DNA of 63,855 nucleotides, filler included, from Nemertoderma westbladi (lineage: Eukaryota; Animalia; Xenacoelomorpha): NCBI GenBank assembly GCA_032718475.1. It is 3 parts of 3 records of this genome, joined end to end, with 100 filler letters (N's around TTAATTAATTAA, not from the genome) between each part and the next. Parts side by side here need not be neighbours in the genome. Positions count along the whole stretch, not along the records: positions 1 to 27,513 come from JAUCBJ010002130.1; 2 more parts are not named here. The stretch is one strand, 5' to 3'. A program made the position numbers and the translations under genes. Positions 1,766-50,684 of this stretch are shown here, piece by piece. Numbering within the stretch: the stretch's first letter is position 1; each line of letters begins with the position of its first letter. The notes beneath the pieces were generated by a model that saw nothing but the letters and a program-made list of their open reading frames with translations, had not been told where the DNA came from and made no database searches.

Positions 1766-2241
1766 TTACCTACCATCCCGTATCGAAATCTTTAGCGTGC
1801 TGTATGTTAATGCTTGGTGTTTTTGTATGTATATATATATAGATTGTGCTATTTTTCGATCTGGCCAGTCCTTACATTGCCGTAGAGTTAGTACTTGAAA
1901 AGGATTTTGTATTTTTAGACTATTTGGGTGTTCTGAAAGGTAATGTGATGCCATACTACTACTCGATGTGTTTCCTGATCTAACTGAATTACGATGTTTC
2001 ATTGTCCTGTCCCTAACCCTAAGATATGATTCGCCTATGTACGTTTTGCCACAGATGTTACATTTAAGTTGGTAAACTATGTTCTTCTTAATACAATTTC
2101 TACAACCGTTACTGCATGTATAACAATCAGTATTAGGGGGGGGGGGGGGGGGCACTTGGGTTTGTTAATGTTAGAACGTATAAGAGTATTTTTTAATTTT
2201 GGGCCGGGAATTGAGACTAATCTTACATTATTGTGGAAAGG
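1766..2241 (-). pseudogene. Penelope Cys-rich linker and GIY-YIG endonuclease (frameshift at a G homopolymer)
   Basis: KPKC..CYTCSNGCRNCIKKNIVYQLKCNICGKTYIGES..RVRDRTMKH..SSMASHYLSEH (CCHH-type PLE endonuclease). Confidence 0.85.
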
Positions 2242-2823
2242 TGTGAGCGTATTCAATTCCGCCTCACAAACCACATAAAGTTGGGAAACGGCGCCTTTAA
2301 GCAATATTGGGAAGCACGAGGTTGATTACCAATCAACCTCGTATCACCCCCAATAAATGGGGACAAAAAACCCCCAAAGGGCCGTATACAATGGAGGTCA
2401 GAGGTTAAGCCTCTGGGGAGAAGGAAAGTAACAGCAGCGGGGGAGGAAACACTCCCACAGAGGTGGGAGGCGAGAATTAGCATACTAGCCAATGAGGGGC
2501 GAGATAAAGGCATCCGCTGAGCAATAAGGCCAAGGTAGTGTAGGTAACCAGTATATATTATGTTGCATACCCCACTACCGGTCAGTTTACTCAGTGGTGC
2601 TGCAGTTTAGTTAGGGCAGAACGGTAACACTTTGTTACCGTAACCGCCGTCACCATCACATATTCTGTATATTACTGCTATCAATTGTGCTATCTATTTT
2701 ACTCGTGTACCTTATACATATACTCATCAAGAATATTACCGGACAGCAACAAACTCCTTTTCACTCACGGCGGGGATGCGTACATAAACCAAATACAGGT
2801 CGGGATCCTCTGATCCCGTCACA
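2242..2823 (+). repeat. 5' LTR (582 bp)
   Basis: TGTGAGCG...CCCGTCACA; near-identical to 9209-9792 with scattered substitutions. Confidence 0.95.
2552..2588 (+). promoter_or_regulatory. Putative LTR core promoter (TATA-like box + initiator)
   Basis: TATATATT at 2552 and Inr-like TCAGTT at 2582-2587, about 30 bp apart; present in both LTRs. Confidence 0.5.
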
Positions 2824-3759
2824 GTAACAAAGTTACCACTGCAAACTGTGACTGCCAGCCACCAGAAAGTCAAAGATGAGTCAAGAGGGAGAGAGGACAC
2901 CGCCGCGGACCCCGGACGACAACCTAACGATCCGCGAGACCGCGACGCGACGGTATCGACCCACGATGCACACCGGGTTCGTCGATGATAGATGATCTGG
3001 CAATCAGGTGAAGCTAGAGAAGCGGCTAGGTGAGTCGAATAAACATTTTAACTATCTAGTCCGCTTTGGACAAAGAGAGTTGGCGGGTGAAAGAGCAAGA
3101 GGGGTCGCCACCGAACTGTGGCGATCTAGGGGTATGGAGCCTGGTGTAGTGTACATAGGGCCATACTTAGTGGATGCCAGGGGAGTTAAGTTAGTGGGTT
3201 GGGCGGCACTGCATGAGGGTGAATCCGACGGTCTCGTCGGTCAGCGAGAATCCCGGAAAGCGGGGGAAAGTTAGTAGGACGGAAAGGCGACGGGAGTCCG
3301 TCGCAACCGATAAGTCTGCTACATCCTCCGCAAAAGCAAGATGGGTGCGGGAGATAAATCTGGCGTGTCAATTGAGAATTGCGGCGCATGACCAGAAAGA
3401 GTTAGAGAGGCGACTGAGTGAGGGAACCGCATTGTTGGAGAGAGAAAGAGAGTTGGCAAGGGAGTGTAGAGAGAGAGCCTAGGAGTGTAGAGAGCAGGAG
3501 ATGAGAGTAGAGAACGAGCCGGCGAGGCGGCTTGAGAGGGTTGCGAGAGAGGCAGAGTTGGCCGAGCAAAGTTTACGAGAGGACAGAGAGAGAGAGATAG
3601 AGGCAAAGCGTGTGCGGGATGATTTGCATGCCAGCCTAAGGGGGCTTATGCAATAACAAGCCAAACAGAAACGCCAACTAGAACTGGCGCAGTTGGGACT
3701 ATCAGAGAGTGCGGCTGGCTCGGGTAGTGTTTACGAGGAGCCAGAAGTAGTGAAAACGT

Positions 3760-6700
3760 TTGTTAATACCCCACTTACAAGCACCGGGCGACAGAACCAG
3801 AACTGGTGTAGCCGTACGGGGGGGGGGGGGGGGTAATAATAATACGTTAGAAGTAATTAATATTAATAGTACCGTAGTGGATAACCCTAATCAAACCTTT
3901 ATTGCAGATAATAACCCTTTACCTGGTAGTAGTAATTTAAATTTAAATATGAATAATTCAAATAATAATTCTAATTCAAATATTCAAAATAATCCGAATA
4001 ATATTAATTCAAATATTCCAAATAATTCGAATAATAATTTAAATTTAGAAAATAATAATAATTCTAATTTAAATAAATTAAATAATAATATTGATAATGG
4101 GGCTATTAATACTAATGTAGGAGACACAGATGGTCCGGCCAACGGTAGCCTGCAAGGCAACGCAGTTAGTGCGCAGAGAGTAGCGGGGGCGAGAGACCCC
4201 AACGGGGGCCTGCAAGGCCACGTAGTTAGGCAGGGAGCGTCGGGCGTGAGTCAACCCGACGGGGGCCTGCCAGGCCACGCAGTTGCACAGGGAGAGGCGG
4301 GGGTGAGTAGACCCAGCCGCAGTAGAGACAGTGCGTCGACTAGAGAGGGGTGTAGAAGCGAAGTAAGAGGTAGTGAAGTTAGAAGTGGCGAGTGGGGGGG
4401 GGGGGGGGGGCTACGGGCGCCCCACCACGGAAGATTAGTGGCGAGAGAGGGGGGGCAGAGAATGTCCAACAAGAGGGACGTAGAAGTGAAGTAAGAGATA
4501 GTGAAGTTAGAAGTGGCGGGTGGGGGGGGGGGGGGGGCTACGGGCGCCCCACCACGAGAGATTAGTAGCGAGAGGGGGGGGGCAGAGAATGTCCCACAGG
4601 CGTCGGCGGATAATGCGCGGGGCAAGTTAGGTGAACCGCGGCACCCGACGACAGAGAATAGTAGGGGGATGATGAGTATCCCCAGGAGGGTCCAGCTGGA
4701 CAGAGTAGAGTCAGATGTTAGCGCCGAGAGTGGGCGAGCGACGAGACGTCGAGCCCAGTCAGAAGAGAGAAGAAGATTAGTAGAGTTTAACCGAGAGGTC
4801 GAAGAGAGAAGAAGATTAGTAGAGTTTAACCGAGAGGTCGAAGAGAGAAGAAGTGAAGATAATAGAAGAGTCGTTGCTAGGAGCAACCAGAGAGCGAGGA
4901 CGGATAGCGAGCCGTCGGTAGTAGAGATGGAGTTAGGGAGTCAGTGGGGTCGAACTCCGGGAGATTGCCGTCGCCCCGGAGAAACGCACCGCACGCCAGG
5001 AGAGGGGTACAGGACGTACCGATACGAAGACGAGAATAGAAGAGGGGATCGAAGAGAAACTTCCCGACGGGATATAGCTGCCGATCGAGAGTACGGTAGT
5101 CGCGGGGAGATTCGAGATTCGAGAGAATTAAACTTCGGTTCGGAAGGGCACATGCAGACTGCAGGACATACTGTAGGCCTTACTGCACATACTATTATAG
5201 GCCATGCTGGGAGAGATAGAGTAGGCGATAGGGTAGCGCGGACGACGGGATTAAACCCGGAAGTCGCGGAGTACATACCGGTAGGTAGGCAAGAAGTGGA
5301 TAGGCCTATATCGGTACCGGCACAGCAGCATGACTATAATATCCAGGGACATAACATATATCCAGGGGAGGGGAGAGTTATTGCAGATAGATGTATGGGC
5401 CCCAATATATTAACATCAACCCCAGTACCAAACATACCGGTGGGGGGGGGGGGGGGGGGGGACAGGGTGACATTCCCCCATTACAATATCAACAATATAC
5501 TCGAACAGCAATGAGAACATCGAACCCCCTGGACGAGAACAGGTCGTGCGACACGGAAATATGGAGGGGGCCGTTACCCCCAATGATATATCCGACTCAA
5601 ATAAAGTCAACAGATAGGACGGGCGGACCGCACCCAACAGGAGAATCTGTACAGCATCCATCGAACCCATTGGAAGCACAGGCGATGGGAATGGCTACAT
5701 TAATCGATGCATTAAAGACCAGGATCGAGTTACCACCAGTCGAGCCATTTAAATTCGACGGAAGTAGGCCGGAAGAATACCTGCAATTTCGGCGCATGTA
5801 CAGCAACGAGATATTAAGTAAGAACTTGACGCAGGCGGAGTGCCTAAAATATCTACAGGTGTATACAGGAGGCCCAGCATACGACATCGTGAGGCAGTAC
5901 CAGGGCATCGAGGGCGGCTTCACGACAGCATGGCGGGCGCTAGACAGGGAATACGGACACCCAGCCAAGATCATCCGGCAAACCCTGAGAGGTATAACAT
6001 CGGGTGGCCTACAGGACAACCCCGTTAGCATAAAGACCTTTGCGAACAAGGTCGAGAAGGCGTTAATCGTGTTAAAGACGCTAGACGCGCCATACGAACT
6101 CAACGCATCTAATAACATCACCACGATAGCGCAGGCACTGCCGATCTGGCTGCGGAGCAAGTGGAGGAAGATCGCCTTCTCCACTCGGGAGAAGAAAGGT
6201 GCGGAGCCAGGGCTAGAGGAAATGTCAAACTTCCTCAACTACGAAGCCGAGTTGATCACAGACCCAGTCTATAGTGAGGATAGTTTGGGGAAGGCGCCAA
6301 AGACCGAATACAACAGGCCTAAACCCGAACACAATCCTGCAGATCCATTCCCGAGAGTAAGACAGTCGCTACCACACGCGGCCACACAGGGGGCTACAAG
6401 CCCACAGTTAGCTGGGAGTAGGGCCACACCGTGGCAGGGACAGAAAGAAAATAACACCACAAATAAACATAATCCCAACATACCCAGTAGGCCGAGTCTA
6501 GATAACCAAAACACTAAATCGGTAGATATAAACCTACGCGCGATACGTGAAGGACTATACAGGGAACGCTATAATCCAGGATTCGAATGTCAATTACATC
6601 GGGACGGAACCCATAAGACCATGAGTTGTAAGCACTGGCAAGCGTTGCCCAAACAAGATCGTGTAGCCTACACAGACGCAAACGGACTATGTCATCGATG

Positions 6701-6827
6701 TGTGGTAGAAGGACACAGATCCGGAGAGTGTAGAGAAACAGCGACAGAGAGATCGAGACTGGAGGCCAAACAATGGCTACAAGCACGACAGTGGCAAGAA
6801 AGAAGAGAAAAGTACTACTCGGGGTAG
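3760..6827 (+). pseudogene. BEL/Pao gag (Asn-rich and charged N-terminus, capsid-like core, zinc knuckles), split in frames at G homopolymers
   Basis: ELPPVEPFKFDGSRPEEYLQF..CLKYLQVYTGGPA..AWRALDREYG..LPIWLRSKW; CQLH..H..C and CHRC..GH..C knuckles. Frame breaks lie at or near poly-G runs. Confidence 0.8.
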
Positions 6828-7831
6828 TACCAGTGAAGATATCAGGAGAGGGCGGTCGATCAGTTACGACATTAATGCTGGTCGACAGCGGAGCAGCCTT
6901 CACGCTGGTGGAGAACTGGGTGGCCGAAGAGATAGGGCTAAAGACGAGGCCGAATAGAATGGCGGTAACTACCGTCTCAAGTAAGGATGAGGTCCTGGAG
7001 ATGAGGACGGGGCGGTGCAGGATATCAGCGATTGCACCGGGATGCGACTATGGGGCGACCATCGACCCCATCCAGGTGATAGAATCGATAAATATCAACG
7101 CCAGGCGACCAACCAACATTGAGGTCGAACAATATAGATTCCTGGACGGTATCGATTTCTCAATACCAGAGGTGGATGTTAGGAAGGTATCCATTATAGT
7201 AGGAATGGACTGCCCGACGGCCCACGAGAGAATGAAGACGGTCTTCGGCGAAGACAGACAGCGGGATCCGACGGCGATCCTCACGCCGTTCGGATGGACG
7301 CTTAGCGGCCCAGTTAAAACCAAGATTCCATCCAGAGTGACGGAGACATCAGGGTGCATGTTACCAGGCACCGTAGACGCAGAGGACGCAGAGGAGAGAC
7401 CAGAAACGGTAGATAAACCAGACGGGGAAGTAAAAGTAAGAGAGTGGGCGGAGGAGAATGGATTTGACGCGGAAGACTTAGAGGCAATGGGATGGAACAA
7501 GGGTCCCAGCAAGTATCGGTATGGGGATGGAGAGGAGCGGACGGCGAGATGTCCGGAGGACAACCCGGAGGAGTGTCCGGTGGAGTGTCAGGAGGACAAT
7601 AGTCCGGAGGAGTGTCCGGAGGAGTGTCCAGAGGAGTGTCCGGAAGAGACGCCGGTCCGGTTGAGAGGCATACCGACAAGGGGGAAGTCGAGTAAGGAAG
7701 ACAGGATGGAAAGGGATAGGATTACTATTGTACGTTCTGTTTTGTCTGTTCTTTCACTTTCTTTTCATTCTGCCGCCGGGAGACAACAAGGTGGGAGGTG
7801 GCATTTTGATGCCAAGAGACGAGGAAGTTAA
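6773..7831 (+). CDS. BEL/Pao aspartic protease followed by an acidic low-complexity tail
   Basis: VLLGVVPVKI..MLVDSGAAFTLV..IIVGMDCP..AILTPFGWTLSGP; in the -1 frame relative to gag. Confidence 0.8.
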   Translation: MATSTTVARKKRKVLLGVVPVKISGEGGRSVTTLMLVDSGAAFTLVENWVAEEIGLKTRPNRMAVTTVSSKDEVLEMRTGRCRISAIAPGCDYGATIDPIQVIESININARRPTNIEVEQYRFLDGIDFSIPEVDVRKVSIIVGMDCPTAHERMKTVFGEDRQRDPTAILTPFGWTLSGPVKTKIPSRVTETSGCMLPGTVDAEDAEERPETVDKPDGEVKVREWAEENGFDAEDLEAMGWNKGPSKYRYGDGEERTARCPEDNPEECPVECQEDNSPEECPEECPEECPEETPVRLRGIPTRGKSSKEDRMERDRITIVRSVLSVLSLSFHSAAGRQQGGRWHFDAKRRGS

Positions 7832-8059
7832 GAAGGCGGCGGAGAGACCCGATTTTAGGGTGGCAGAAGAGGGAGAACCAATTCCTGGTGAGTTGGAATT
7901 GGCGGAGAGAGTGTGGCGAAGAATAAGAGGACGTATAGGGGGGCAGTGGGACAGTGCCTCATGGAAGAATCGATGGAAGATCGAGGGGCACCTTAGAGTT
8001 TAGTCGTCCAAATTTTGGACTGAGGGGGGTGGGAATGAGGGCGAGACGCCCTTCCCACG

Positions 8060-8960
8060 CACAAATAATTATTTAAATAAATAATAAAATAATTAAATAA
8101 TAAATAAGTAGAAGGTAGAAAGTAATAGTTAGTAGAAGATAGTAAGAAGTTAGTAGTCAGATAGTTAGTAGTTAGAAGAAAGTAAGTAGTAGTCAGAAAG
8201 TTAGTTAGAAAGTTAGGTAGAAGTTAGTTAAGTTAGAAGTCGGTGGGTAAGGGAGTGTGGCATATTGACATGCCACGAGTAGCAGAGGGGTTGTGGGCAC
8301 TGAAAGCGCCACGTAGAAAGTAGTAGTAGAGAGGTTGTGGGCACCGGAAGCGCCACGTAGATGGAGGTAGTAGCAGAGAGTGGTTGTGGGCACCGCAAGC
8401 ACCACATAGATGGAGGTAGTAGCCGAGGGTGGTTGTGGGCACCGTAAGTGCCATGTAGAAAGTAGTAAGCAGAGTAGACTTAGTAGAGTTAGGAGTTAGA
8501 GACTTAGAAGAGTTAGTAGGAGTTAGTTAGAGCTAGTAGAGTTAGAGTTAGTAGAGAGTTAGAGAGTTCTAGTTAGAGCTAGTAGAGTTAGAGTTAGTAG
8601 AGAGTTAGAGGGTTTTAGTTAGAGCTAGTACAGTTAGAGTTAGTAGAGAGTTGGAGAGTTCTAGTAGAGTTAGGAGTTAGTTAGAGTTAGAGAAGCTAGA
8701 AAGTAATAAGTAGTAAGAGTGTTAGATAGTAGGTAGTTAGTAAGCTAGAGAGTTAGAAGATAGTAAGTAGTTAGTAAGTTAGAGACTTAGATAGTATGGT
8801 AGCATAAGTAGAGGAGTAAAGAGATAGTGAGAGGAGCTGTCGACGAGAGAGAGTGCAGACGAGTGCGATTCAGGTGTGGGGAGAGAGTAGAGTTGAGTTA
8901 GAAAGTAAGATAGAGAGGAGTTAGAGCAAAGTGGAGTGTGAAGTTAGAATTTGAGAGATA
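8060..8960 (+). repeat. C-depleted A/G/T low-complexity spacer with internal tandem repeats
   Basis: AGTTAG/AGTAG runs; four GTTGTGGGCAC units at 8290-8445; about three 46-bp units at 8524-8665. Confidence 0.75.
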
Positions 8961-9208
8961 TATTTAAAAAATTGTGTGAGAGTCCACAATTGTCTCAAAC
9001 CGAGATGCCAGATGTCTTGGTGCAACATAGGTTGCGGTTGCGCCAAGAGAGGGTAGCGACATCATACCCAGCGGGAGCGGCCTGGAAAGCCGACACCGAG
9101 TAAGATAACTCCACCCCACACCCGATAGTAGATCGAGTTTCCAGCGGAATTGAAGCGCACTCAGAGGTTGATGCTATCTTCTCACCGGGAAGATAGCATG
9201 GGGGGGAG

Positions 9209-9792
9209 TGTGAGCGTATTCAATTCCGCCTCACAAACCCCATAAAGTTGGGAAACAGCGCCTTTAAGCAATATTGGTAAGCATGAGGTTGATTACCAAT
9301 CAACCTTGTATCACCACCAATAAACGGGGACAACAAACCCCCAAAGGGCCGTATACAATGGAGGTCAGAGGTTAAGCCTCCAGGGAGAAGGAAAGTAACA
9401 GCAGCGGGGGGGGGGAAACACTCCCACAGAGGTGGGAGGCGAGAATTAGCATACTAGCCAATGAGGGGCGAGAGAAAGGCATCCGCTGAGCAATAAGGCC
9501 AAGGTAGTGTAGGTAACCAGTATATATTATGTTGCATACCCCACTACCGGTCAGTTTACTCAGTGGTGCTGCAGTTTAGTTAGGGCAGTACGGTAACACT
9601 TTGTTACCGTAACCGCCGTCACCATCACATATTCTGTATATTACTGCTATCAATTGTGCTATCTATTTTACTCATGTACCTTATACATATACTCATCAAG
9701 AATATTACTGGACAGCAACAAACTCCTTTTCACTCACGGCGGGGACGTGTACATAAACCAAATACCAGTCGGGATCCTCTGATCCCGTCACA
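9209..9792 (+). repeat. 3' LTR
   Basis: Copy of 2242-2823, preceded by the PPT and followed by AAAGG. Confidence 0.95.
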
Positions 9793-12170
9793 AAAGGGGA
9801 ATTTGCTATAATTTTCTTTACTTTGCGTAGGATGTTATCGTTGATGAAAGGTAGTGCTAAGGGGAGAGTATCTTTATGTTGAATTGTTTTCCAGGAAGGT
9901 CCTCTCGTTACCTGATAGATTAATTTAAGATAATTTATTTATAGAGTATTTAAACCTCTATTCTTACCCCCCGGGGTCGATCCATAGTTGTTAGCTCGCT
10001 TAATAGCGTTTATCGCGGTGTTTCTGATCATATGCTTGGGATGTTTACTATAGAGGTTTAGTAGCACTCCCGCATTTGATGGCTTTACATAAAGTTCAAA
10101 GTCGATCAAACCATCGTTGTTAACTATGGTAAGGACATCTAAAAAAGGTAATTTATAAAAAGACTTCTCCATGGTATATTTAATAGTGGAGTGGCAAGAG
10201 TTTAAATATTCCAAAAACTTATCCAGTTCATCCTCTCTGTGGCTCCACGTGGAACACCCGTCGTCAAGGAAACGGAACCAGGACTCAGGTGACAAGTGGT
10301 AGTGGTTGAGGAATATTGTTTCTTTAACGTGTATAAAGATAATAGCGAAAGGGGCCGCTGATCGGTTCCCCATTCCCATCCCATGTGACTGCTCATAATA
10401 TTTATTTTCAAAGTGAAAATAACCTTTAGCAACAGCCAATTGTAATAAACCGTAAAAGTCAGCCGTTGTAAGACCGAACATGTTTATTTCATGTTCATCT
10501 TTGGATAAAAAATGACTTCTATACCTTCAGGAATAGGGATATTGGTGTAAAGGTTAACAATGTCCGTACTGAAAATAATATCACCCGGTTGCATTGGTGG
10601 TAATTTTTTAACCCTGTTTATAAAGTCTATGGTGTTCCTTAAATGTTCTGGAACAAACTCAGCAGCCTGTGTTAAAATTTGCGCAATGAGCCACGCCGGT
10701 TTCTCTAAAATAGAACCCGTGCAGGACGAAATTGGCCGCATTGGATTACCGATTTTGTGAATTTTTGGAATTCCATATAGTTCTGGAACTCGGGGTTTAA
10801 CAGTTACAAATGAACTGGTTAATGTGTCAGGCATTGATCTACACAAAATAGATTTGATGCCGGAGTTAGTCTCTGCTGTAATACGTGGGGTTGGATCGCG
10901 TGGTAACACTTTATATGCGTTAGTGTCGCTAAGTATGTCGCTATGGATTTTATCAACATAACTGTTCCTGTCGAATACCGCAAAACCGCCACTCTTATCG
11001 GCTTTCTTAATAACGATGTTCTTCGACTTTGAGAGTTTATCCAGTGCTCTTCGCTCATCCGTGGTTAGGTTATCCTTATCGGGATGAGGGGTGAAATGAC
11101 TATGATACTGGTATATTCCCAGAATATTAGTTTTAAGTTCGAGCAAATCTCGTTCACCCCGTGGGGTAGTTTGCTGAGGTTTACATTTAATAATGTCCGG
11201 GAAAGGAACTCCTCCAAGAGAATTGCGTATTTGTGGGGTTGTAGGTTGCGTTGAGGTGCTGGCGGGTGTTACTGTTGGTGTTGTGGTGCTGGGTGCTACG
11301 GGTTGCGATGTGGTGGTAGGAGGTGCGGGTTGCGTTGTTGTGCTGGGTGCTGCAGGTTGCGATGTGGTGGTAGGAGGTGCGGGTTGTGTTGTTGTGCTGG
11401 GTGCTACGGGTTGTGATGTGGTGGTAGGAGGTGCGGGTTGCATTGTTGCGCTGGGTGCTGCGAGTTGCGTTGTTGTGGTTGGTGTTGGTTGCGGGGTAGT
11501 GTTGTTTGTTCTGCGTTGCAAAGAAACCTGTCGTTGTTCTTCTATCGAATCCTTCCAGCGAATACCATAGGCAAATCATTCTAACGCTATTTCGGCATCT
11601 ATCAAGACTTTGTCGTCAATTTGCCGGGTTGGAGCAAATTGCGGCCCCTTACCTAGTAGACTCTGTGTCGCAGTTGGAAGTGGTTCCGTTGTTAATATAC
11701 TAACCCTAGGTTTAGACGGCGAGATCGAAGTGTGTGTAGACGGCGAGATCGAAGTGTGTGTAGATGGCGAGATCGAAGTGTGAGTTCGTGCTATTGGTGT
11801 CGTGCACGTGTGTAAACGTTTCAGTTTATCGCGATGTATATTTGTAGTTTCAACTGAACTTCTTCCTCTATATCCTTGCATGCTGCGTAGATCGGGTGTG
11901 TAATTGCGTTACTTAAATTCCAGCTAGCGATTGCATTATGGGCAAATGCTATTCGCGTGGACGTGTAGTTGAGTTTAGAGTGTACAGACCTAATGGCGCA
12001 ATCTAATGATTGTTTTTGGAATGTTGTAACTGCTCTTTTAAAGCCGGGATGATCGATGAACATTTTAACGGAGTTGTCAATGAATTTAGGGATGAATCCG
12101 CGAGAACGGCAGGTGAGTAGAAACTTGTTATGCATCCTGTTCCTCGAGTGCTTCTCAGTTGATTTTAAAA
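9793..12170 (-). pseudogene. Penelope N-terminal domain and reverse transcriptase (several frameshifts/stops)
   Basis: ORF pieces 11821-12135, 11576-11881, 10484-11521 and 9939-10481 give LLGKGPQFAP, NLTTDERRAL, YGIPKIHK..PMRPI and RFLDD. Confidence 0.9.
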
Positions 12171-27613: not shown

Positions 27614-28172
27614 CCCGACCAGTTTGGTTTATGTACGCGTCAGCCGCACCGTGTGATGAAAAAGGAGTTTGTTGTTCCGATGTTCTTAATAGTATAAAAT
27701 ATGTATAATATAGGTGATAGCATATAGCACAGTTCAGCAGTTGACCGGTAATTGAATAAGGTATATGGTTGGTGACGGCGGTGACGGTCTTAAAATGTCA
27801 CCGTACTGCCATGACTGAGTGACTGAGATAACTACTGAATGATAAACACCAACCGGTAATATACTGCTCTAGGTTGGCCGTATTACTCAGCTGATGCCCT
27901 GCTGTCCCCCCATTGGCTAGTAACCTACTTCTTGCCTTTACCTTTGCGGGAGTGTTTCCCCCCCCCCCCCCCCCCCCGCTGCTGTTACTCTCTCTCCTTG
28001 AGGTAGCTTGACCTCTAACCTCTATTGTGTGAGGCCCTTTGGGGTTTGTCGTCCCCGTTTATTGGGGGTGATACGAGGTTGATTGGCAATCAACCTCGTA
28101 CTCCCCAATATTGCTTAAAGGCCCTGCTTGTCCAACTTTATGGGGTGGTTAGCGGAATTGAATTCGCTAACA
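27614..28172 (-). repeat. Diverged LTR related to the 2242-2823 LTR, running into the scaffold gap
   Basis: Minus strand starts TGTTAGCGAATTCAATTCCGC and shares blocks such as GATTGCCAATCAACCTCGTATCACCCCCAATAAA and CAACAAACTCCTTTT. Confidence 0.9.
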
Positions 28173-30920
28173 TACGAGGTTGGGTGCAACTTCTGTTGGT
28201 GGGGTATAGGTGCGTTCCTGCACCAAAGCGCTCTGGTCGGAAGCACACGAGGTCATTGGCCTCCCAAGTAAATCAGAAGGTCTGTGAATTCCGAGAACTC
28301 CAACTGGATCATGGTCCACCTGAGAATGAGTGAGTACAGTGAATGCGTCCCCGTTCGCGGACAGTCAATGATGAAGAACCTCTAGCAGCAGAGGTGGCAC
28401 AGAAAATCGAGGATGGAGACATCAAAGGAGCAGTTCGCCTTGCCTCATCAACAACAACTATCGCACTGGATACACCAGAGAACCTTGCGACTCTTCGACT
28501 GAAGCATCCACCACGTCCTGCTGATTACCGCACTCCACCGCCTCCTTTACAATTACCCCGGCCCACTTGTTCAGATGCCACTATCAGGGACCTGCTGCGC
28601 ACTTTCCCTCCGGGAAGTGCAGGTGGGCCGGACGGTCTCAGACCCAAAATCTGGAAGGACCTCGTGGCCCTACTAATGGGGAAACTGGTAGGAGACTTCT
28701 CAACAAGCTCAGCCGTTTTATGGAGATTGTGTTAGCTGGGGAGATCCCACCACTAATTCGACCAATTTTCTATAGTGCTAATCTTTTCTCCTTCACCAAA
28801 GAAGACAATGGGATTCGACCTATAGTTGCTGGCCTTGCCATCCGCCGCCTTGCAGCCAAGTGTAACGGACTACGTGTGAGACAGCAGCGGTTGAACTCAC
28901 ATGGAGACGTCCAGGTTGGAATTGGTGCAATGAATGGGGCAGAAGTTGCAGCACACGCAACCCGCACCATGACTGCCACATCCAACTTACCAGGTTCAGT
29001 GCTACTCAAGGTAGACTTCAGTAATGCCTTTAATGCTGTCCGTAGGGATTCGATGCTAGAGATTGTCTACGAACGACTACCTGAGATCTATGACTACACG
29101 CTTGCCGCCTACGGGGAGCCAAGCTACCTCATCCATGGGAAACGTATCCTTCTTTCAGAGGAAGGATTTCAGCAATGGGATCCTGAAGGCCCGCCCCTAT
29201 TTGGCGACAGTACCATTGAGATGGCACAATCCCTTAGCTCCATATTTAATGTGTGGTATCTTGACGATGCCAACCTGGCTGACCAGTACCAGGTGGTACT
29301 ACAGGACCTCCGACGGATCATCAAGGATGGACACAAACTGGGGCTGTCCATTAACCCTAAGAAGAGTGAGCTCTTCTTTATTGGGGGAGAGAATGCCAGT
29401 AGCCGCAGCACAATCACAGCTGAGTTTGATGCATTATGTCCTGGTATCAAGGTCCCACCCCTTGATGAACTTACAATACTAGGGGCGCCCCTCAGCCAAA
29501 ACTCACTTGAGAAGTGCCTGCGTAATAAGATTGGGGACCTTAATACACTTTCTGCCCGTTTGCCTCTACTTGATTCACACCATGCTTTTTACCTGTTAAA
29601 GAACTGTCTCGCAATGCCCCGGCTGATATTCTTTCTCCGGACTGCTCCATGCTTCACCCACCCCGATCTTCTGGGGGAGTATGACCAGACACTCAGGGAT
29701 GCACTACAGACAGTAACGAACTGCTGCATTAACGACCAGTCATGGGACCAAGCTTGCCTACCAGCACAGTTGGGGGCCTGGGACTGAGTTCCGCATGTAA
29801 GCTCGCACCATCCGCCTTTTTGGCTTCAGTGGCTGCATGTGCTCCTCTTTCAGACCGCCTATTTATTACAACTCAAGTGACTCCCAACTCTGACAAACTT
29901 GTTGATCTTGCCACCAGATATCGCGTAGCCCAGCTACCAGCCAATACATCACCATCAACCGCCACAAGACCGCACTCATTGATAACAGAGGTGCATGAGG
30001 CTAGCTTGGAAGCCCTCCATGAAGAGGCATCACCCTCAGACCGAGCCAGGCTCAACAGTGTCTCCAACCCAATCTCCAGCTTCTGGATGGATGCCATACC
30101 TTCATAGGCCTTGGGGCTGAAGCTTAGTGATACACAGTTCCGGATTGCCATTGCCATCCAACTTGGCTGTCGTGTAACCGACCCTCACCCCTGCACCCGT
30201 TGTGGGTCTCCCGTTGCAGCTAATGGGCTCCATGGCCTTTCCTGCCAACGGAGCGCTGTACGTTTTCCCAGGCACACCATGATTAATGAAATTGTAAAGC
30301 GTGCTCTCACTACCTGCGACATCCCCACCATGTTGGAGCCCCCGGGTCTGTGCCGCATTGATGGCAAAAGAGTCGATGGAGTCACCCTAGTGCCGTGGTC
30401 CAGAGGAAGAACACTAACATGGGACGCAACTGTGGTGGACCCCCTGGCAGCCAGCCATATATCTCGTACACTCTCTTCTGGTGGAGGAAGCGCAGCCGAG
30501 GAAGCGGAGGTCTGGAAGAACAAGAAGTATGGTGAACTGATGGACAGAGGCTACCTGTTCCGTCCAGTAGCCTTTGAAACGATGGGCCGGGCAGGACCTG
30601 AAACAGAAGAGTTCCTGGCAGAGATAGGGTCGAGGCTAAGAGACTCAACCAAAAAGCCTCGCTCCCACTTGTTCCTCCTGCAGAGGTTGCTGGTCGCAAT
30701 CCAGATGGGTAATGCGGCATCCATCCTTGGTACCATCAGTGAGGCGGGGGATGGACTGATGGACCTTCTAGGATGATTTGCATCTTATGTTTGTGATTTC
30801 TGTTAACTCTAAATGTTATCTTATTTACAGTTAGCTATAACATTTCTAGAACATAGTTACTATACTATGTGAAAGATTGACTTTTTACTTAAAATTTTCC
30901 ACGTTTATGATAAAAGTCTC
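28173..30920 (+). mobile_element. CRE-clade non-LTR retrotransposon (RT + CCHC + restriction-like endonuclease), few lesions, 5' end cut by the LTR
   Basis: GSAGGPDGLRP, GIRPIVAG, KVDFSNAFNAVRR, WYLDD, GGLGL, CTRC..HGLSC, RHTMIN, RVDGVTLVPWSRGRTLTWDAT, AEEAE..KNKKY. Confidence 0.88.
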
Positions 30921-39493: not shown

Positions 39494-40794
39494 ACTTCCT
39501 AAATTATTTAATATAATCCATGTATGTTCAGAAGTTGTCTCTTTAATTAGCATACAATATTATTTAGTGTTAAATTAATCGGCCAAGGTTCTAGGTGTGA
39601 AAGCTAAGAAAAAAAAGCCTTAATAGTGGGTGACCTAGATTTTGCATGCAACTACTACTACTAGGATCGGCATGCTGCATTGCAGCTGCATTTTTAAGAA
39701 TGCTGTGCCGGCTTGTCGACAAAATTGCGCCGCCACAACTCCCTCCCCATGACATTTGCTAGATCATCCGCATCTTCAAGGCCAGTGTCCTTTAAGATGC
39801 GTCTCAAGAAAGTCATGGGCTGTCCACCATGCTTATTCACTCCATGAGGCTGCCAAAGTACAAGATTATGCACTGGCTGGTCCTCACGGCGAAAGCAATG
39901 TCCTGCAAAGCGGAGGCGATTTTGTTCTAGTGTCAAGCTTGGGGGAACCAACGAGAAACATCCAATGTTATATAGTGTCTGGTTGGAGATGTGTGCATTG
40001 TACTTGACACAATGAACCCGGCGTAGCATTCTTGTGAATGTGTCATCCAGAGATTTATATTTAAATGGGAAAGAAGTCGAAATGATGCCGTTCGTGGCGT
40101 ATCCATAGTTATAGCTTCAGGGATAATGACTGTAGAAAGGGTCTAATGCCACTGTTAACAAAATCAGTTTCAATTTATAAACCTAAACCAAAATATTAAA
40201 TTCAACGTACGGTACCACTAATTATTATGCCACCAAATTCCGATATAGACAGTATGATAGGATGTATTAGATTAACATATTTAGATTTATCGTAATACTG
40301 TATGTAGGCCATTAAATGATTAAAAATTGTTGGTTCCATTATTAAGTCGTTGAATTACAAATTTACAAATAAAAGTGAGGCTGGTAAAAGAGTAAAAAAA
40401 TTATAAAAAATGTTGGTTCTGAAATAAAAAATCATTAAAATATATAATTTAAAAGAAAGGAAAAGAATACCTAAACCACGAGCTGCATAAAATTGAGGGG
40501 GATAAAAAGACATATTACTGTTACTAAATAAAAGGAATCCCTACAAGATTATGGTAAGTCCGATGAATAATATATTATAGGCAATGTAATATATAATAAT
40601 AGAATCGGGCTAACTGACTGAATAATAATAGCAACTACTGAACTAGCAGACTAGCACGGTACTCCTGCACTACATGTGCAGACTGTCCAGACCCAGCACC
40701 AATGTAATATGTCTGAGTAATACCACGGTACCCCTAGGCCCTGTGTCCATTAATTAATACATAACATCTCCCCCATTTTTGAGATTTTAGCAGT

Positions 40795-43200
40795 TTAAAA
40801 TCTTGACACCGATATTCGATCATCAAATCTGACAATCGGGTTTCGAACTCGGGTGCTTCGACGAGGGCTATTATGGTTATTCGTACCTTCCATAGAGTTC
40901 GGATATTTACTTTCAGTTTCTAAATTACTATCAATAAAATTCGAATCGCAAGCAGTTTCATTACTCCCATCTATAGGTTTGTTGTAAAGTCGTATAAAAC
41001 GTCTGTTTCTCCAAGTGGTACGTCCAGATGGGAACTTCAGTTGATAATCTCGCATATGGCCGATGCCGACAATAGTTCCAAGGCGGTCCCAAAGTTTCGT
41101 CCTTGGATCCTGAACGCGAACTGTGGCGCCAATACGTAGAGGTTTTAAGTCATGAGCATTGAGGTTATAATGCTCCACAATTTTTTCGCGCGAAGTGGAA
41201 TATTTCAAATCGGCCTCATCGGCTGACTGACGCCATCTAGCGTCGAAAGAGCTATGGTGGACTGGTAATCTTGAACGTAAGTTATGGCCAAATATGATTT
41301 GATTGGGCGAACGCCCGTCAGGTCGCGGTGTATTCCGGAGTTCTAGAATAGCTTCCAGGAATGGTTCCGAGCTAATATCTTGATCCGTTAATTTCGCTAA
41401 CATTGTTTTAATGATTTTCACATGGCTCTCAGCGTGGCCATTACTCGATGGGAAATATGGGGTGCTGGGACCCCATCTCACACCCCACCGTTCTAGAAAT
41501 TTTCTAAATGTGGTAGCAGCGAATTGTGGTCCCCTGTCTGTCCTTAAAAAAGTTGGAACGCCGAAATCTACAAAAAATTTCCGCATTACAAAAGTAAGTT
41601 GTTGTGCAGTCGGGTCCTGCCGCCATTGGGCCACTATTGGGAAGCCGGATAACAAGTCAGTATAAACAAGGTAGTGACGTCCAGCCAGTGCAAATAAATC
41701 CACCGAGCAACATTGAAAAGGTCGTTCAGGAACAGGGTCGCACATCAATGTCTCCTTAGGAAGGCTGGGTAGGTGTTCCTGACATTTGTTACAACGCGCA
41801 ATATAATTAACTATATCACTGTTAATACCAGGCCAATATACTGTAGAACGTGCCCGCTGCTTTGTACGTACGATTCCCTGGTGTGAGGAATGTAAGCGTT
41901 CTAGAACGTATTGCCGTTTTTTTTTTGGAATTACCAAACGTGGGCCGAATAGGACAAGATTATTGTCCACAGATAACTCGTGATGGATTGACTTGAATTG
42001 TTGGACGAAACCTGAGTATTTCTCCAAGTTTATAAATCCATTTAAAATTGACTCGACGAGTTGTTTATAATCAGAATCGACTAGAGCAGCTGATCGAATT
42101 TCCTCAATAGCTGGGTCGTTGTATACATCGGCAATGGTGTCACTTCCACTGGATTGTTGAAGTTCAGATGATATTGCAGCTAATGTGCATATTGTATCAA
42201 AATCATCTCCAGGTTCGGGATCATTAACTGGCGCTCGACTTAGGCAATCTGCAACACAGTTTTTATTTCCCTTTTGCCATTCTAGAACAAACTGATATTT
42301 TGACTGTAAGTCAGCCTTAATGCGCTGTAGTTTTAAATTCTCGACTTGGTTAAGCGTATGTTGATTGAATATTGGAATGAGTGGCCGGTGATCGGTAATG
42401 ACTCTGAAGAAGTCGATTCCAGATAGATATAACCTGCACTTCTCTATTGCAAATTTAATCGCTATTGCCTCCAACTCAATTGTCGCATATCGAGATTCGG
42501 CATCTGAGAGAAACCGACTACCGCACATAACTAGCCTCCAATTGCCATCGCAATGTTTCTGCATTAGGTTAAATCCGAGGCCATTTAATCTACTTGCATC
42601 AGTCTCTAACCGCGTTTCATCTCCAACCACAAATGGGGTGAGTACCGGTGGACTTATTAATGCTTTCTTTACATTATTAAACGAAACATCATTGTTTGGA
42701 GTCCAAATGAATTGATTCCGTGACCGTAATAATTCTCGTAAAGGAACCGCTGCAGTGCTAACGCTGGAGGAAAAACAACCTAACTGGTTTGTTAGTCCCA
42801 TAAAACTCCTTAGTTCTGTGATGTTTGTAGGTTTTGGGAATTCAAAAATCGCCTTGACCTTTTCTGGGTCGGCTTCAATGCTATTATGTGATATAATATA
42901 TCTGGCAAACTGAATTTCGTTTTGCGCGAATTGGCATTTCCGGGGGTTGAGGGTTATTCCATGCAGGCGACATCTTTCTAGTACAGAACGAACACGTTCA
43001 ATATGTTTATCGAATGAGGAGTCCTCTATCAGTATGTCATCAACAATCTTTTTTATATTGCCAATTCCCTCTAAAGCGATATCCCCACGGTAGCTGTATG
43101 AGTCTCCTGTAGAAATAAAACCCATTGGGGCTCTGCAGTATCTGTAGCGTCCCCATGGTGTTAAAAAAGTCGTATAATCCGCGACTCCTCTGCCAGGTCC
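40795..43200 (-). pseudogene. Gypsy RT C-terminal part, RNase H and integrase
   Basis: TTFLTPWGRY, IVDDILI, ETDAS..GLG, YATIELE, TDHRPL, LHSSHQG..YWPG..CNKC, TDRGPQF, SNGHAE. Confidence 0.92.
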
Positions 43201-45300
43201 GGTCCACCTGCCAGTACCCTGACTTGGCATCTAGTTTAGTAAACCAACGGGCGTCTGGGGTACGGTCGGAAACAATGTCGAATGGGGATCGTGTGTTGTG
43301 GACTGTACGCTTGACCTGAGTGTTAAGTTTAGTAAGGTCTACAGTCATTCTGATTTCCCCCGGGTTGTTTGGCTTAGCGCAAACGACAATGGGATGGCAC
43401 CATTCCACCGCGCGGTCGCCAACCCGTTCGATTATACCTTTATTTAACATGTCATCAATCTCGGCTCTAGCTTTTTCCATAAAAGCGAGTGGAATTGGAC
43501 GTGCTGCATAAACGCAGAAAGGTTGCGCTCCATCCTTTAACTCTATTTGCATTGGGGGTCCCGCCATGACCTTTAACTCTCCCGGTACGGCGAACACATC
43601 AGCGAATTCTTCCCACAGTTTAGTTTTGGTCGCATCAATAGATTTCAGGGTAGGTACATTCTGTATGGTTGATGCAATATAATTAATTCCAAGAGAATTT
43701 AATGGAAGAGGGAACGACTGAAGGACAATGCCGAGTCCGATACATGCTTTCAATGATAAATAAATATCACTTGTAATAGATTCGCATATATAAACCCAGT
43801 CAGTATGATATGTCTCGTTTATTTTCAGTCTTAATTCTATGCGCCCCAGACAATCCATTGATGAACCATTGGCCCCCTCGAGTTCAATATCTGTAGGTTG
43901 CAGTTTATTTTTTGACATTCTGAACCATTTTAATAGTTTTGAGCCGGCCACAATTACTTGCGCCCCAGTATCGGCTATGCAAGTTTTTCTCCCCAATAGT
44001 CCACCTTTCAGCCGATAGAATTTCACGTCAATCGCTGGTCGTGGATAATCTGAACTCGTCCCACCAATGCCAGCTACAACGATAGCACCAGTCTTTTTCG
44101 GAACGGGAGGTTTTTTGGGAAACCGGCATTTGTGAGTGTAGTGACCTTTTCGGTTGCAGTTTTTACACTTTTGCCCTATGGCACTGCATGGTTTGTTGGG
44201 ATCATGAGGATAAATTCTCCCGCAGTGGTAACACTCTCTAACTTTTTGGTTCGACTCTCTAAATTCAGGGGAATTTCCCCTAGATTTTCCCCTAGAATTT
44301 CCCTTACTCCGCGTCTGGCTCTTTCCACATTTGCGATACGATCGCGGGTGCATGGCATTGACTTTTTGTTTTAGTCGCTGCTCATCGAGGATTGCAAGTT
44401 CTTTATTCCTGCAAAAATCCACTGTTTCATCACGTGATAGAGCTGGTTTTTTCGCTAAGAGTTCCTGGCGAGTTTCGTCGTTACGAATTCCGCATATAAT
44501 AAGGGTTATTATCCAGTCATCCTTGGACATTGTTTCAAGAGTAGCGTCGTCGGCCATCTCGCACAACTGGATATAATAGTCATCAAAAGACTCGCGTTCG
44601 AGTTGACGTTTACGTACGAGTTTAAACCGATCTACTGTGATGTTCTGTTGTGCGGGCAAATGGGTTTTAATCGCAGCTAGAATATCATCCATAGACAGTT
44701 CGGTATCTTGGGGAATATTCATGGCATATTGAACACGGTTAAGGAAATCTGGAGAGCAGTAAGAAAAAAACGTTGCAAGTTGATCTCCTCTTGGTTTGGT
44801 TTCGAGATTTGTTATTCGTGCATAGTTTTTCCATGTCGTCTCCCAGCGTTTAAACTCTTTATACTCGATATCGTCCTCTAGTTGATTAGGGGGTCGGACG
44901 GTGAGTTTAGTAGTTTGCGATTCGTGGTGATAGTTGGGCCGATTATCTACGTGATTCCCGCCATTATTTCCACGGAAAGCTTCAAGTATGCGTAGTTGTT
45001 GCTCCTCCTGCCGGATTTGTAACTCCTGTATTTGGGCAAACATAGTCTGTTGCTGTTGGTGAGCGATCATCTGTTGTTGCTGTGTAATTAATGCCGCCAA
45101 ATTTACACCAGTTGCTGTCGCATCTCCCGGGAGGGCGTCATCATCTTCGAGGAGAAACTTACAAAGTCGCTGTTTAAGAGATTTTGTAGATGTTTTATCC
45201 TGGAAATTAATTCCAGCATTCGTTAGATGATATTTAAGCTCAGCTCTACCGAGGTCATCGACGGTGTCCGGATCGAGGTTTAGAGTGTCCTCTTCCGTTG
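43200..45300 (-). pseudogene. Gypsy gag-protease-RT N-terminal part
   Basis: CYHCGRIYPH..C, CKNCNRKGHYTHKC, ADTGA, IRMTVDLTKLN, LDAKSGYWQV; frameshifts near 45245 and 43200. Confidence 0.88.
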
Positions 45301-46752
45301 GTTGGGCTATTATAAGTTAGGCTACGGGTACTGAAGTTAGTCCGAGTGGGCCTACAGCAATTTATGTTGTAATGGTCACGCAGAACACCGCTACGTTCAG
45401 ACAGTTTTTTAGGTTCCAAAATTATGGATATATTCCATAATTCAGCCATTACTGCGCCATGGTAAGTCCGATGAATAATATATTATAGGCAATGTAATAT
45501 ATAATAATAGAATCGGGCTAACTGACTGAATAATAATAGCAACTACTGAACTAGCAGACTAGCACGGTACTCCTGCACTACATGTGCAGACTGTCCAGAC
45601 CCAGCACCAATGTAATATGTCTGAGTAATACCACGGTACCCCTAGGCCCTGTGTCCATTAATTAATACATAACAGATTACATATTACAATTTTTAAAAAA
45701 TGGTTTTTGTTGTTCTTGTACTGATTCCTTTTATTTAGTAACAGTAATATTGCAGCTGCAATGCAGCATGCCGATCCTAGTAGTTGTAGTAGTAGTATCC
45801 CCCTCAATTTTATGCAGCTCATGGTTTAGGTATTCTTTTCCTTTCTTTTAAATTATATATTTTAATGATTTTTTATTTCAGAACCAACATTTTTTATAAT
45901 TTTTTTACCATTTACCTCACTTGCCTCACTTTTATTTGTAAATTTGTAATTCAACGACTTAATATTGGAACCAACAATTTTTAATCATTTAATGGCCTAC
46001 ATACAGTATTACGATAAATCTAAATATGTTTTTATTTTTGTTAACCGTGGCATTAGACCCTTTCTACAGTCATTATCCCTGAAGTTATAATCCAGAGATT
46101 TGGTGTCCTCAGCAGTTAGAGCCCATAGAGGAGTACTGGAACTACTGCTGCTCTAAATAATCGGACCTTAAGTTTCCGGTTAATTATCGGTGACTTCCAA
46201 ATCCTGGAAAGCCTATTCAAGGCTGCCCATGTCTTAAATGCATGCATGCATGAATGTTTGCATGCAAACCATTATGACGGCATTCAAATATAATGTGTAG
46301 GTTTAAACCCACATCTAGGTAGATGTTGAACGGGGTTCTTGCCTCCTGATAAATCCACCATCTCCACTGTTACATCTTCTTTCGTTATGGAATCTGAACT
46401 TACATTTTTGTTGTATATTTTCTATCATTGTGGAATTTATTGATATAATTTTACCGACATAAATTCCTCATAAACTATAAATTGTACTTTTTTTGAACAT
46501 TCAGTAAATACAACAGACTTTATTTACCGAGCGCAGTAGGTTATACATGTATCCGTTTTCTACCGGTCTGTCTGTCGGTAAATTTTCGAAGGCTAATAAG
46601 TCAGTCAATATTTGATTAAATTAAACCAAACTTGGTACTTACCGGTATTTGCGAGGGGGGCTCAGTTATCCAGTCTCCCTCTAGAGGGCGATAACGGTTT
46701 TTTCCTTCCACGTGGGATAATGAATGGGAGCGGTTGAATAAGTTGAAGCGAA

Positions 46753-49700
46753 CGAGATGGATCCACACTGCTGCACAGTCGAGATGGATCCACACTGCTG
46801 CACAGTCGAGATGGGTCCACACTGCTGCACACACAGTCGCGATGGGTCCACACTGCTGCACACACAGCCTAGATGGGTCCACACTGCTGCACAGTCGAGA
46901 TGGATCCACACTGCTGCACAGTCGAAATTGGTCCACACTGCTGCACAGTTAGATGGGTCCACACTGCTGCACACACAGTCGAGATGGGTCCATACTGCTG
47001 CACACACAGTCGAGATGGGTCCACACTGCTGCACAGTCGAGATGGGTCCACACTGCTACACAGTCTAGATGGGTCCACACTGCTGCACAGTCGAGATGGG
47101 TCCACACTGCTGCACAGTCGAGATGGACCCACACTGCTATACAGTTGAGATAGATCCACACTGCTGCACAGTCGAGATGTATCCACCCTGCTGCGCAGTC
47201 GAGATGGGTCCACACTGCTACACAGTCGAGATGGATCCACACTGCTGCACAGTTGAGATGGATCCACACTGCTGCACAGTCGAGATGGATCCATACTGCT
47301 GCACAGTCTAGATGGATCCACACTGCTGCACAGTCGAGATGGATCCACACTGCTGCACAGTCGAGATGGATCCACACTGCTGCACAGTGGACATGGATCA
47401 AAACTGCTCCACAGTCGAGATGGATCCACACTGCTACACAGTAGAGATGGATCCACACTGCTGCACGGTCGAGATGGATCTACACTGCTGCACAGTCGAG
47501 ATGGATCCACACTGCTGCACAGTCGAGAGGGATCCACACTGCTATACAGTCGAGATAGATCCACACTGCTGCACAGTCGAGATGGATCCACACTGCTGCA
47601 CTTTCGAGATGGATCCACACTGCTCAACAGTCGAGAGGGATCCACACTGCTGCACAGTCGAGATGGATCCACACTGCTGCACTGTCGAGATGGATCCACA
47701 CTGCTGTACAGTCGATATGGATCCACACTGATGCACAGTCGAGATGGATCCACAATGCTGCACAGACGAGATGGATCAACACTGCTGAACTTTCGAGATG
47801 GATCCACACTAATGCACAGTCGAGAGGGATCCACACTGCTGCACAGTCGAGATGGATCCACACTGCTGCACAATCGAGATGGATCCACACTGCTGCACAT
47901 TCGAGATGGATCCACACTGCTGCACAGTCGAGAGGGATCCACACTGCTGCACAGTCAAGAGGGATCCACACTGCTGCACAGTCGAGATGGGTCCACACTG
48001 CTGCACAGTCGAGATGGATCCACACTGCTATACAGTTGAGATAGATCCACACTGCTGCACAGACGAGATGGATCCACACTGCTGCACAGTCGAGAAGGAT
48101 CCACACTGCTGCACAGTCGAGATGGATCCACACTGCTGCACAGTCGAGACGTATTCACACTGCTGCACAGTCTGGGTGGGTCCACACTGCTGCACAGTCG
48201 ATATGTATCCACCCGGCTGCACAGTCGAGATGGGTCCACACTGCTACACAGTCGAGATGGATCCACACTGCTGCACAGTTGAGATGGATCCATACTGCTA
48301 CACAGTCGATGGATCCACACTGCTGCACAGTCGAGATGGATTCACACTGCTGCACAGTTGAGATGGGTCCACACTGCTGCACAGTCGAGATGGGTCCTCA
48401 CTGCTGCACAATCGAGATGGGTCCATACTGCTGCACAGTCGAGATGGGTCCACACTGCTACACAGTCGAGATGGGTCCACACCGCTGCACAGTCGAGATG
48501 GGTCCACACCGCTGCACAGTCGTGATGGATCCACACTCCTATACAGTCGAGATAGATCCACACTGATGCACAGTCGAGATGGATCCACACTGCTGCACAG
48601 TCGAGATGGATCCACACTGCTGCACAGTCGAGATGGATCCACACTGCTGCACAGTCTGGATGGGTCCACACTGCTGCACGGTCGGGATGGGTCCACACTG
48701 CTGCACAGTCGAGATGGATCCACACTGCTGCACAGTCGAGATGGGTCCACACTGCTGCACAGTCGAGATGGATCCACACTGCTATACAGTTGAGATAGAT
48801 CCACACTGCTGCACAGACGAGATGGATCCACACTGCTGCACAGTCGAGATGGATCCACACTGCTGCACAGTCGAGATGGAGATCCTCACTGCCGCACAGT
48901 CGAGAAGGGTCCACACTGCTGCACAGTCGAGATGTATCCACCCTGCTGCGCAGTCGAGATGGGTCCACACTGCTACACAGTCGAGATGGATCCACACTGC
49001 TGCACAGTTGAGATGGATCCACACTGCTGCACAGTCGAGATGGATCCATACTACTGCACAGTCGAGATGGATCCACACTGCTGCACTAGTCGAGATGGAT
49101 CCACACTGCTGCACAGTCGAGATGGATCCACACTGCTGCACAGTCGACATGGATCAAAACTGCTCCACAGTCGAGATGGATCCACACTGCTGCACAGTAG
49201 AGATGGATCCACACTGCTGCACGGTCGAGATGGATCTACACTGCTGCACAGTCGAGATTGATCCACACTGCTGCACAGTCGAGAGGGATCCACACTGCTA
49301 TGCAGTCGAGATAGATCCACACTGCTGCACAGTCGAGATGGATCCACACCGCTGCACTTTCGAGATGGATCCACACTGCTCAACAGTCGAGAGGGATCCA
49401 CACTGCTGCACAGTCGAGATGGATCCACACTGCTGCACTGTCGAGATGGATCCACACTGCTGTACAGTCGATATGGATCCACACTGCTGCACAGTCGAGA
49501 TGGATCCACAATGCTGCACAGACGAGATGGATCCACACTGCTGCAAAGTCAAGAAGGGTCCACACTGCTGCACAGTCGAGATGGATCCACACTGCTGCAC
49601 AGTCGAGATGGATCAACACTGCTGAACTTTCGAGATGGATCCACACTACTGCACAGTCGAGAGGGATCCACACTGCTGCACAGTCGAGATGGATCCACAC

Positions 49701-50472: not shown

Positions 50473-50684
50473 AATGTCGACAATCCTGAACGGCGGCATA
50501 TGGAGGGATTATCGGCAAATAATCATTCCTTCTATGGAGGGAGGGGGATGACTCTTTATTTTAATTAAATATTTCCCATTTTCGAATTACAGTTATCTTC
50601 TCTGACTCTCGGAATTTATAACGCCTCGCAGCTCGCACTGTTATCTTAAAGTATTACATTATAAGTCTTGAAGTAAATATTTAT

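Follow-up and report, generated by a model that had tools for sequence, protein, structure and literature searches.

A BEL/Pao-type LTR element of Nemertoderma westbladi with a leader complementary to its own LTR: a candidate for self-primed reverse transcription

According to the ICTV, the Belpaoviridae carry an 18-nt primer-binding site (PBS) for tRNA-Arg or tRNA-Gly and rely on tRNA-primed replication (PMC8742986). Priming by the RNA of the element itself has so far been shown for the Tf1 group alone and predicted for a few plant lineages. In the available portions of the papers concerned, the first 11 bases of Tf1 pair with the PBS and RNase H makes the cut (PMC7175516), Tj1 of S. japonicus is similar to Tf1 (PMC4600332), and Tcn1 and the Copia TAR lineage are predicted to prime themselves (PMC6317226). 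A literature search, outside whose coverage lay subscription journals, Repbase, GyDB and supplements, returned no report of BEL/Pao self-priming: the words primer, PBS and tRNA are absent from a survey of BEL/Pao elements (PMC3118150), the Sinbad paper mentions neither PBS nor tRNA, and the available portions of PMC3601003, PMC3286476, PMC8220671, PMC5443660 and PMC13524379 hold nothing on the subject.

The window, a stretch of 63,855 nucleotides of Nemertoderma westbladi DNA including N gaps, contains at 2242-9792 (+) a 7.5-kb LTR element with the marks of BEL/Pao: TG...CA LTRs, a target duplication, a polypurine tract and the corresponding type of Gag (Table 1). The two LTRs are identical at 563 of 582 aligned bases. 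Its pol consists of protease alone and not of the PR-RT-RH-IN series of the Belpaoviridae; no RT, RNase H or integrase was detected in the element, and the polyproteins of three full-length relatives found no match downstream of the protease. The 3' non-coding region (7860-8960) consists of purine-rich tandem repeats, with units of 46, 49 and 34 nt, in the place expected for pol. The element is a young, non-autonomous derivative of BEL/Pao and no complete member of the Belpaoviridae. A HMMER search with its Gag returned 1758 relatives at E up to 0.001, with identities of at most 35% among the 150 matches listed; named relatives come from a ribbon worm, a limpet and a pipefish (about 30% identity), and PF05380 and PF18701 (Pao-type) are present in all 10 long Gag relatives scanned. 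Word-based protein searches for relatives gave 0 and 1 matches.

The spacing of the TATA and initiator motifs places the predicted transcript start at A2584, about 45 nt 5' of the 10-mer at 2629-2638 that is the subject of this study. The only AATAAA of the LTR (2352-2357; 28063 in the sister LTR) lies in U3, 5' of the TATA box and between C and G runs; normally used, it would end the RNA before R, and it must therefore be masked or act from a distance. U3 also contains a perfect 10-bp palindrome (2318-2340) that is kept in the sister LTR and falls within the part of the LTR with the deepest coverage in all four DNA runs.

Elsewhere in the window, a Gypsy element at 40551-45674 (-), whose 216-bp LTRs are identical and whose primer site is an ordinary TGG, offers an internal contrast to the BEL/Pao element and lies within an inverted repeat pair (40274-40504 / 45796-46030). 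A MITE-like element that ends in TTAA and has terminal inverted repeats of poly-G lies at 543-1450. At 46752-50491 is a tandem array of 27-bp period in which both strands contain long open frames, and an uninterrupted frame of 972 codons with a cyclic nucleotide phosphodiesterase domain runs from 58030 to 60948 (-).

Table 1. Features of the element and of its sister LTR, in window coordinates
Feature	Position	Strand	Remarks
Target site duplication AAAGG	2237..2241		Second copy 9793-9797
5' LTR	2242..2823	+	TG...CA ends
CCAAT	2489	+	Putative promoter role, from motif spacing
TATA-like box and initiator-like TCAGTT	2552 and 2582-2587 (region 2552..2587)	+	Putative promoter role, from motif spacing
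Predicted 55-nt 5' fragment, would-be primer	2584..2638	+	Duplex with leader -41.8 kcal/mol
Stem CGGT.AC/GT.ACCG	2622..2628 / 2640..2646	+	11-nt loop, one A.A mismatch; perfect in sister LTR
Candidate primer 3' end	2629..2638	+	Exact complement of PBS; contiguous in DNA
CATAAA, candidate variant poly(A) signal	2783..2788	+	Conserved in sister LTR; putative role
GC-rich 7-bp hairpin, U5 end	2801..2818	+	Pair probabilities 0.73-1.0
Primer-binding position GTAACAAAGT	2824..2833	+	Abuts LTR end; no TGG
Leader remainder to first ATG (2876)	2834..2875	+	Rough colinear inverted copy of 2584-2628
ACTGTGAC	2845..2852	+	Complements U5 end 2818-2825 (U5-IR-like stem), also CAGT blocks in R
Gag frame	5391..6827	+	DUF1759 (BEL/Pao capsid), E 6e-11; Cys-His motifs
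Aspartic protease frame	6734..7831	+	Nothing of RT, RNase H, integrase downstream
Polypurine tract	9200..9208	+	Abuts 3' LTR directly
3' LTR	9209..9792	+	TG...CA ends; copy of same 10-mer at 9598-9607
Sister LTR	27614..28172	-	72% identical; end and leader in N gap
Sister stem	27803-27797 / 27785-27779	-	Perfect
Sister loop 10-mer ATTTTAAGAC	27796-27787	-	Differs at 4/10

The leader of the element starts with GT and not with the TGG of an 18-nt PBS for tRNA-Arg or tRNA-Gly. Its first ten bases, GTAACAAAGT (2824-2833), are the exact reverse complement of 2629-2638 inside the 5' LTR, and both 10-mers are unique within the window save for the 3' LTR copy at 9598. When the LTR was shuffled with its dinucleotides preserved, a match of at least 10 arose in 6 of 20,000 shuffles flush with the LTR end and in 27 of 20,000 at offsets 0-3; shuffling R-U5 only, the counts were 21 and 37 of 20,000, respectively. 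The flush match is thus confirmed as real and not due to chance, and it provides a PBS complementary to the LTR RNA of the element and flush with U5, one of the traits of the Tf1/sushi group. The original prediction had claimed this substitution for TGG, and all of its coordinates hold; the stem in whose loop it had placed the 10-mer was likewise located; it contains one A.A mismatch, and its loop is 11 nt long.

The primer could instead be a host small RNA such as a tRNA half, with the LTR match being incidental. Half-tRNA priming is known in Copia lineages, according to the available portion of PMC6317226. In half-tRNA-primed elements, among them Osser, Bryco and Bianca, the PBS complements the 5' half of a tRNA. 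If its end is set at tRNA position 38, the present 10-mer fits pyrimidine-32, U33 and purine-37 with the anticodon GUU. This anticodon-loop pattern is a loose one, passed by the 10-mer in one of seven frames and by the sister loop in three of seven, and the proposal leaves an exact LTR match (6/20,000) to chance. The PBS also varies among copies and differs among relatives, in which its complements lie across their own splice joints (see below). Searches of the element with Rfam (E up to 5) and ARAGORN yielded neither an Rfam nor a tRNA-like match, and the element therefore encodes no tRNA of its own. We regard a host small RNA as the least credible of the primers and roles considered here.

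The complementarity reaches further than earlier noted, since the entire 52-nt leader resembles an inverted copy of the first 55 nt of the predicted transcript. With the 10-mer excluded, an end-to-end comparison of 2834-2875 with the reverse complement of 2584-2628 was equalled by 26 of 3000 shuffles for the 5' LTR and 9 of 3000 for the 3' LTR copy, both values being optimistic because the bounds were picked after the fold was known; against R of the sister LTR there is no mirror (434/3000). None of 5000 shuffles reached the local-alignment score of the leader, and the two of 312 internal control windows that equalled it are both purine-rich repeats. In the minimum-energy fold of 2584-2880, 2595-2638 pairs with 2824-2864 in one bulged helix (z = -2.46; 0/200 shuffles), and the 10-mer pair probabilities are 0.57-0.98 for 2584-2870 and 0.42-0.72 for 2584-2900.

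Constrained folds rank the competing states. The colinear register (2595-2638/2824-2864) comes to -74.5 kcal/mol, a 9-bp inner hairpin that buries the 10-mer to -71.8 (2.7 kcal/mol above the minimum) and a U5-IR stem to -67.1 (7.4 kcal/mol above the minimum). With the outer stem closed, the energy is -60.1 kcal/mol and the 10-mer is left unpaired from the PBS; in the folds computed, a shut closing stem prevents the loop from pairing over 10 bp. The original prediction had the bases after the 10-mer pair with the transcript start (2583-2599/2834-2848), a register that is possible but disfavoured at -60.5 kcal/mol, 14 worse than the colinear one, and it is rejected as the favoured state. Tf1 reportedly forms a U5-IR stem, and a similar stem is possible in the present element, where the 8-bp complement 2845-2852/2818-2825 is matched by 7 of 500 shuffles; a significant U5-IR stem is found in none of 12 BEL/Pao relatives. 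In the window element and in all nine relatives checked, the base after the primer is unable to pair with the base opposite, so that the duplex ends at the LTR boundary.

A long, bulged helix that ends just 5' of the first ATG (2876) and has a near-equal, switch-like alternative fold could have been selected for packaging, dimerisation or translation control, with priming achieved by other means. Against such a role, an exact core of 10-13 nt occupies the position of TGG, flush with the LTR end, and stops at that boundary both here and in eight relatives with different letters; no other primer site is visible in the element. We consider a purely structural function improbable.

Within the family, the sister LTR differs from the element at four of 10 loop positions and four of 31 flanking positions, and two matched changes leave its stem perfect. 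Its leader falls in an N gap, and the signs of covariation within the family are therefore indirect. Degenerate BEL/Pao RT, RNase H and integrase sequences, with stops and nested insertions, lie on the same strand at 25730-20967 (-), 1.9 kb past the sister LTR and with the N gap between; no second LTR matching the sister LTR was found for these remains. A reverse transcriptase frame at 28525-29787 (+), probably of a non-LTR element, adjoins the sister LTR on the opposite strand. Searches for further family members by DNA patterns gave 1 chance match and 0 in viral contigs, 44 matches in metagenomes, none of which aligned past the pattern, and 0 in prokaryote genomes; a BEL/Pao alignment against viral contigs gave nothing.

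Contigs of four DNA runs, from at most three samples and with variants unphased, reveal an abundant family. No variant of the first two leader bases is listed in three runs of two samples. The largest variant in the PBS 10-mer is C>T at 2828; this change and the G>A found at 2832 complement two of the four changes of the sister loop. Transitions are common anyway, and the variants 2828>G, 2832>C and 2833>A or C, also present, are not predicted by the single sister loop. The variant table is empty at 2596-2639 although the contigs differ there, and loop variation is not readable from it. A 441-nt contig with a sister-type U5 end aligns up to 2825, leaves the alignment right after that base, where the sister loop predicts, and rejoins it at 2842-2863 without change after 57 unlike letters. 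A PBS that varies among copies fits a fixed host primer poorly, an argument that is indirect.

The leader could also be a functionless inverted duplication of R, left by a template switch in a defective lineage. Its mirroring of R along the whole length, the non-autonomous nature of the element and the high variability of 2832-2837 among copies would be in keeping with such a relic. The insertion is young and its target duplication clean, however, and it follows that the element was primed with its present leader. The core is exact and the remainder degenerate, the core is also found in coding relatives, and the divergent contig preserves 2842-2863. A relic duplication is very unlikely for these reasons.

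An alignment of 20 full-length BEL/Pao relatives led to 23 loci (L046-L068) in prokaryote assemblies, most of which are most likely animal contigs binned into MAGs. The LTR and leader could be defined in 12 of the 23, which come from seven assemblies and include some sisters. Those dropped were seven short internal pieces (L046, L051, L054, L062, L063, L065 and L066), L059 and L068 for want of an LTR pair, L067, in which the leader was not found, and L060, which has a leader starting with GT and an incomplete LTR. Of the 12, a single element has a TGG PBS; it spans L053:9071-15050, with 95% identical LTRs and the target duplication ATCAG. The 1.4-Mb contig in which it sits bears the title of a Wolbachia chromosome and is either a nuclear Wolbachia insertion assembled as a bacterium or symbiont sequence containing a host element.

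The relatives were compared with a strict splice model, in which the match has to be flush or one base off, the donor GTRAG or GTAT and the acceptor pyrimidine-rich; this donor set was fixed after a lenient run. Eight of the 12 (L047, L048, L050, L055, L056, L058, L061 and L064) have a leader with an exact complement of 11-13 nt in their own LTR, the letters of which differ among relatives, and each match spans a predicted GT-AG intron of 338-1022 nt. Between 0 and 2 of 400 shuffles reached the match of each relative, the TGG element reaches only 4 nt, and a match of 10 is attained by four of 156 non-cognate leader-LTR pairs, three of which combine sister families. LTR ends were placed by eye in five relatives; among the seven with ends set by two LTR copies, four pass. 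These relatives lend independent support to the view of the original prediction that the RNA of the LTR, in place of a tRNA, acts as primer.

Three of the 11 non-TGG relatives fail the strict test: L057 has one mismatch, the match of L049 lies five bases off, and L052 passes only if any GT-AG is allowed (4/500). The LTRs of these three likewise contain a predicted GT-AG intron whose joint forms a complement to the leader. The sisters L047 and L050 differ in matched bases on both sides. Leaders of the relatives begin with GT (or AAGT), and in the GT types the primer ends in AC. A long helix beyond the core is present in two of nine relatives, the other seven having no pairing past it.

In the window element, the match is contiguous and no AG precedes any suffix of the 10-mer; a splice-joined primer is therefore rejected here for lack of an acceptor before any part of it. 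Cleavage at a splice donor after 2639 is rejected as well, because the sister LTR and many contigs have GTCACC where the element has GTAACC, and G>A changes are found at 2640. This family probably represents an intron-less version of the splice-joined primer of its relatives. In the capsid tree, the element forms a long branch that joins no supported group and lies outside the group of the splice-joined relatives, and its descent from a spliced ancestor is accordingly something that we infer.

Taken together, the evidence from sequence makes it rather likely that the element primes reverse transcription with its own RNA in a Tf1-like manner, with an internal primer end and a helper reverse transcriptase. 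In a transcript starting at about 2584, the first 55 nt would fold back to pair with the leader, and a cut after C2638, possibly made by helper RNase H by analogy with Tf1, would free a 3' end flush with U5 that the reverse transcriptase of the helper element could extend. The resulting strong-stop DNA, covering 2823-2639, would then move to the 3' R and allow the upstream LTR to be restored from it; this transfer needs an R that extends past 2639, which is consistent with CATAAA at 2783 as the poly(A) signal. Plus-strand synthesis that copied the attached primer would write changes of the loop into the PBS, and occasional read-through past the 10-mer into the attached primer could build the mirrored leader, which would then be kept as an anchor. 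We conjecture that the mirror is most simply a trace of plus-strand synthesis beyond the 10-mer.

The self-sequence primer might act in trans, if solo LTRs or the R copy at the 3' end of a partner genome supplied a short or separately processed LTR transcript that annealed to the PBS. The DNA signature would be identical, the family is very abundant, the contig depth is far higher over the LTR end than over the leader, and the hairpin would keep the 10-mer looped where no PBS follows. The cis fold is the minimum-energy state, however, and the part of the RNA that the leader mirrors is exactly that between the predicted start and 2638, as expected for a capped 5' fragment. A trans-acting primer has a small but appreciable chance of being correct, and priming in cis is the reading that we carry forward.

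More speculatively, and with more doubt than confidence, we suggest that a large part of marine-animal BEL/Pao has swapped tRNA priming for an internal self-primer that is mostly assembled by host splicing. The present family would then be the intron-less end state, in which a conserved hairpin holds the end of the primer, all of the capped 55-nt 5' fragment serves as primer, and copying by the reverse transcriptase into this attached primer turns the leader into an inverted copy of R, keeping primer and PBS matched. If true, a BEL/Pao self-primer would extend the mechanism to each of the three main LTR superfamilies and inform the question, addressed in the available portion of PMC3601003, of whether tRNA priming is the ancestral state. 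Self-priming would account for the failure of tRNA-based annotation to find a PBS and, as we see it, might release elements from control by tRNA fragments. The enzymatic question would become which activity can cleave an RNA duplex internally, and the intron-less family is the simplest version to test because no splicing is needed.

The element resembles the Belpaoviridae (Semotivirus) in its LTRs, DUF1759-type Gag, protease, polypurine tract, type of animal host and length of 7.5 kb, and differs from them in being without a tRNA PBS, RT, RNase H and integrase (PMC8742986). With its splice-joined BEL/Pao relatives it shares a match to its own LTR (11-13 nt in the relatives) and a duplex ending at the LTR boundary; the match spans an intron in the relatives, whereas here it is contiguous, in two subfamilies that are 72% identical. 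The plant Ty1/copia TAR lineage (Houba, Osr-1) is comparable as a case of sequence-predicted self-priming outside Tf1/sushi, but belongs to Copia and to plants, and the available portion of PMC6317226 describes no splice-joined or hairpin-held primer. Like Tf1/Tf2 (Schizosaccharomyces pombe), Tj1, Tf1/sushi and Tcn1, the element has no tRNA PBS, and as in the Tf1 group about 11 nt beside the 5' LTR pair with its own RNA and a freeing cut is needed (available portions of PMC7175516 and PMC4600332). The Tf1 group is Ty3/gypsy, whereas the present Gag is of BEL/Pao type and not that of a chromovirus; self-priming of Tf1 has been demonstrated by experiment, whereas the present element is known from its sequence, in a copy without RT or RNase H. 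As read here, the feature works like the self-priming of Tf1, stands outside that group and departs from the ICTV account of the Belpaoviridae.
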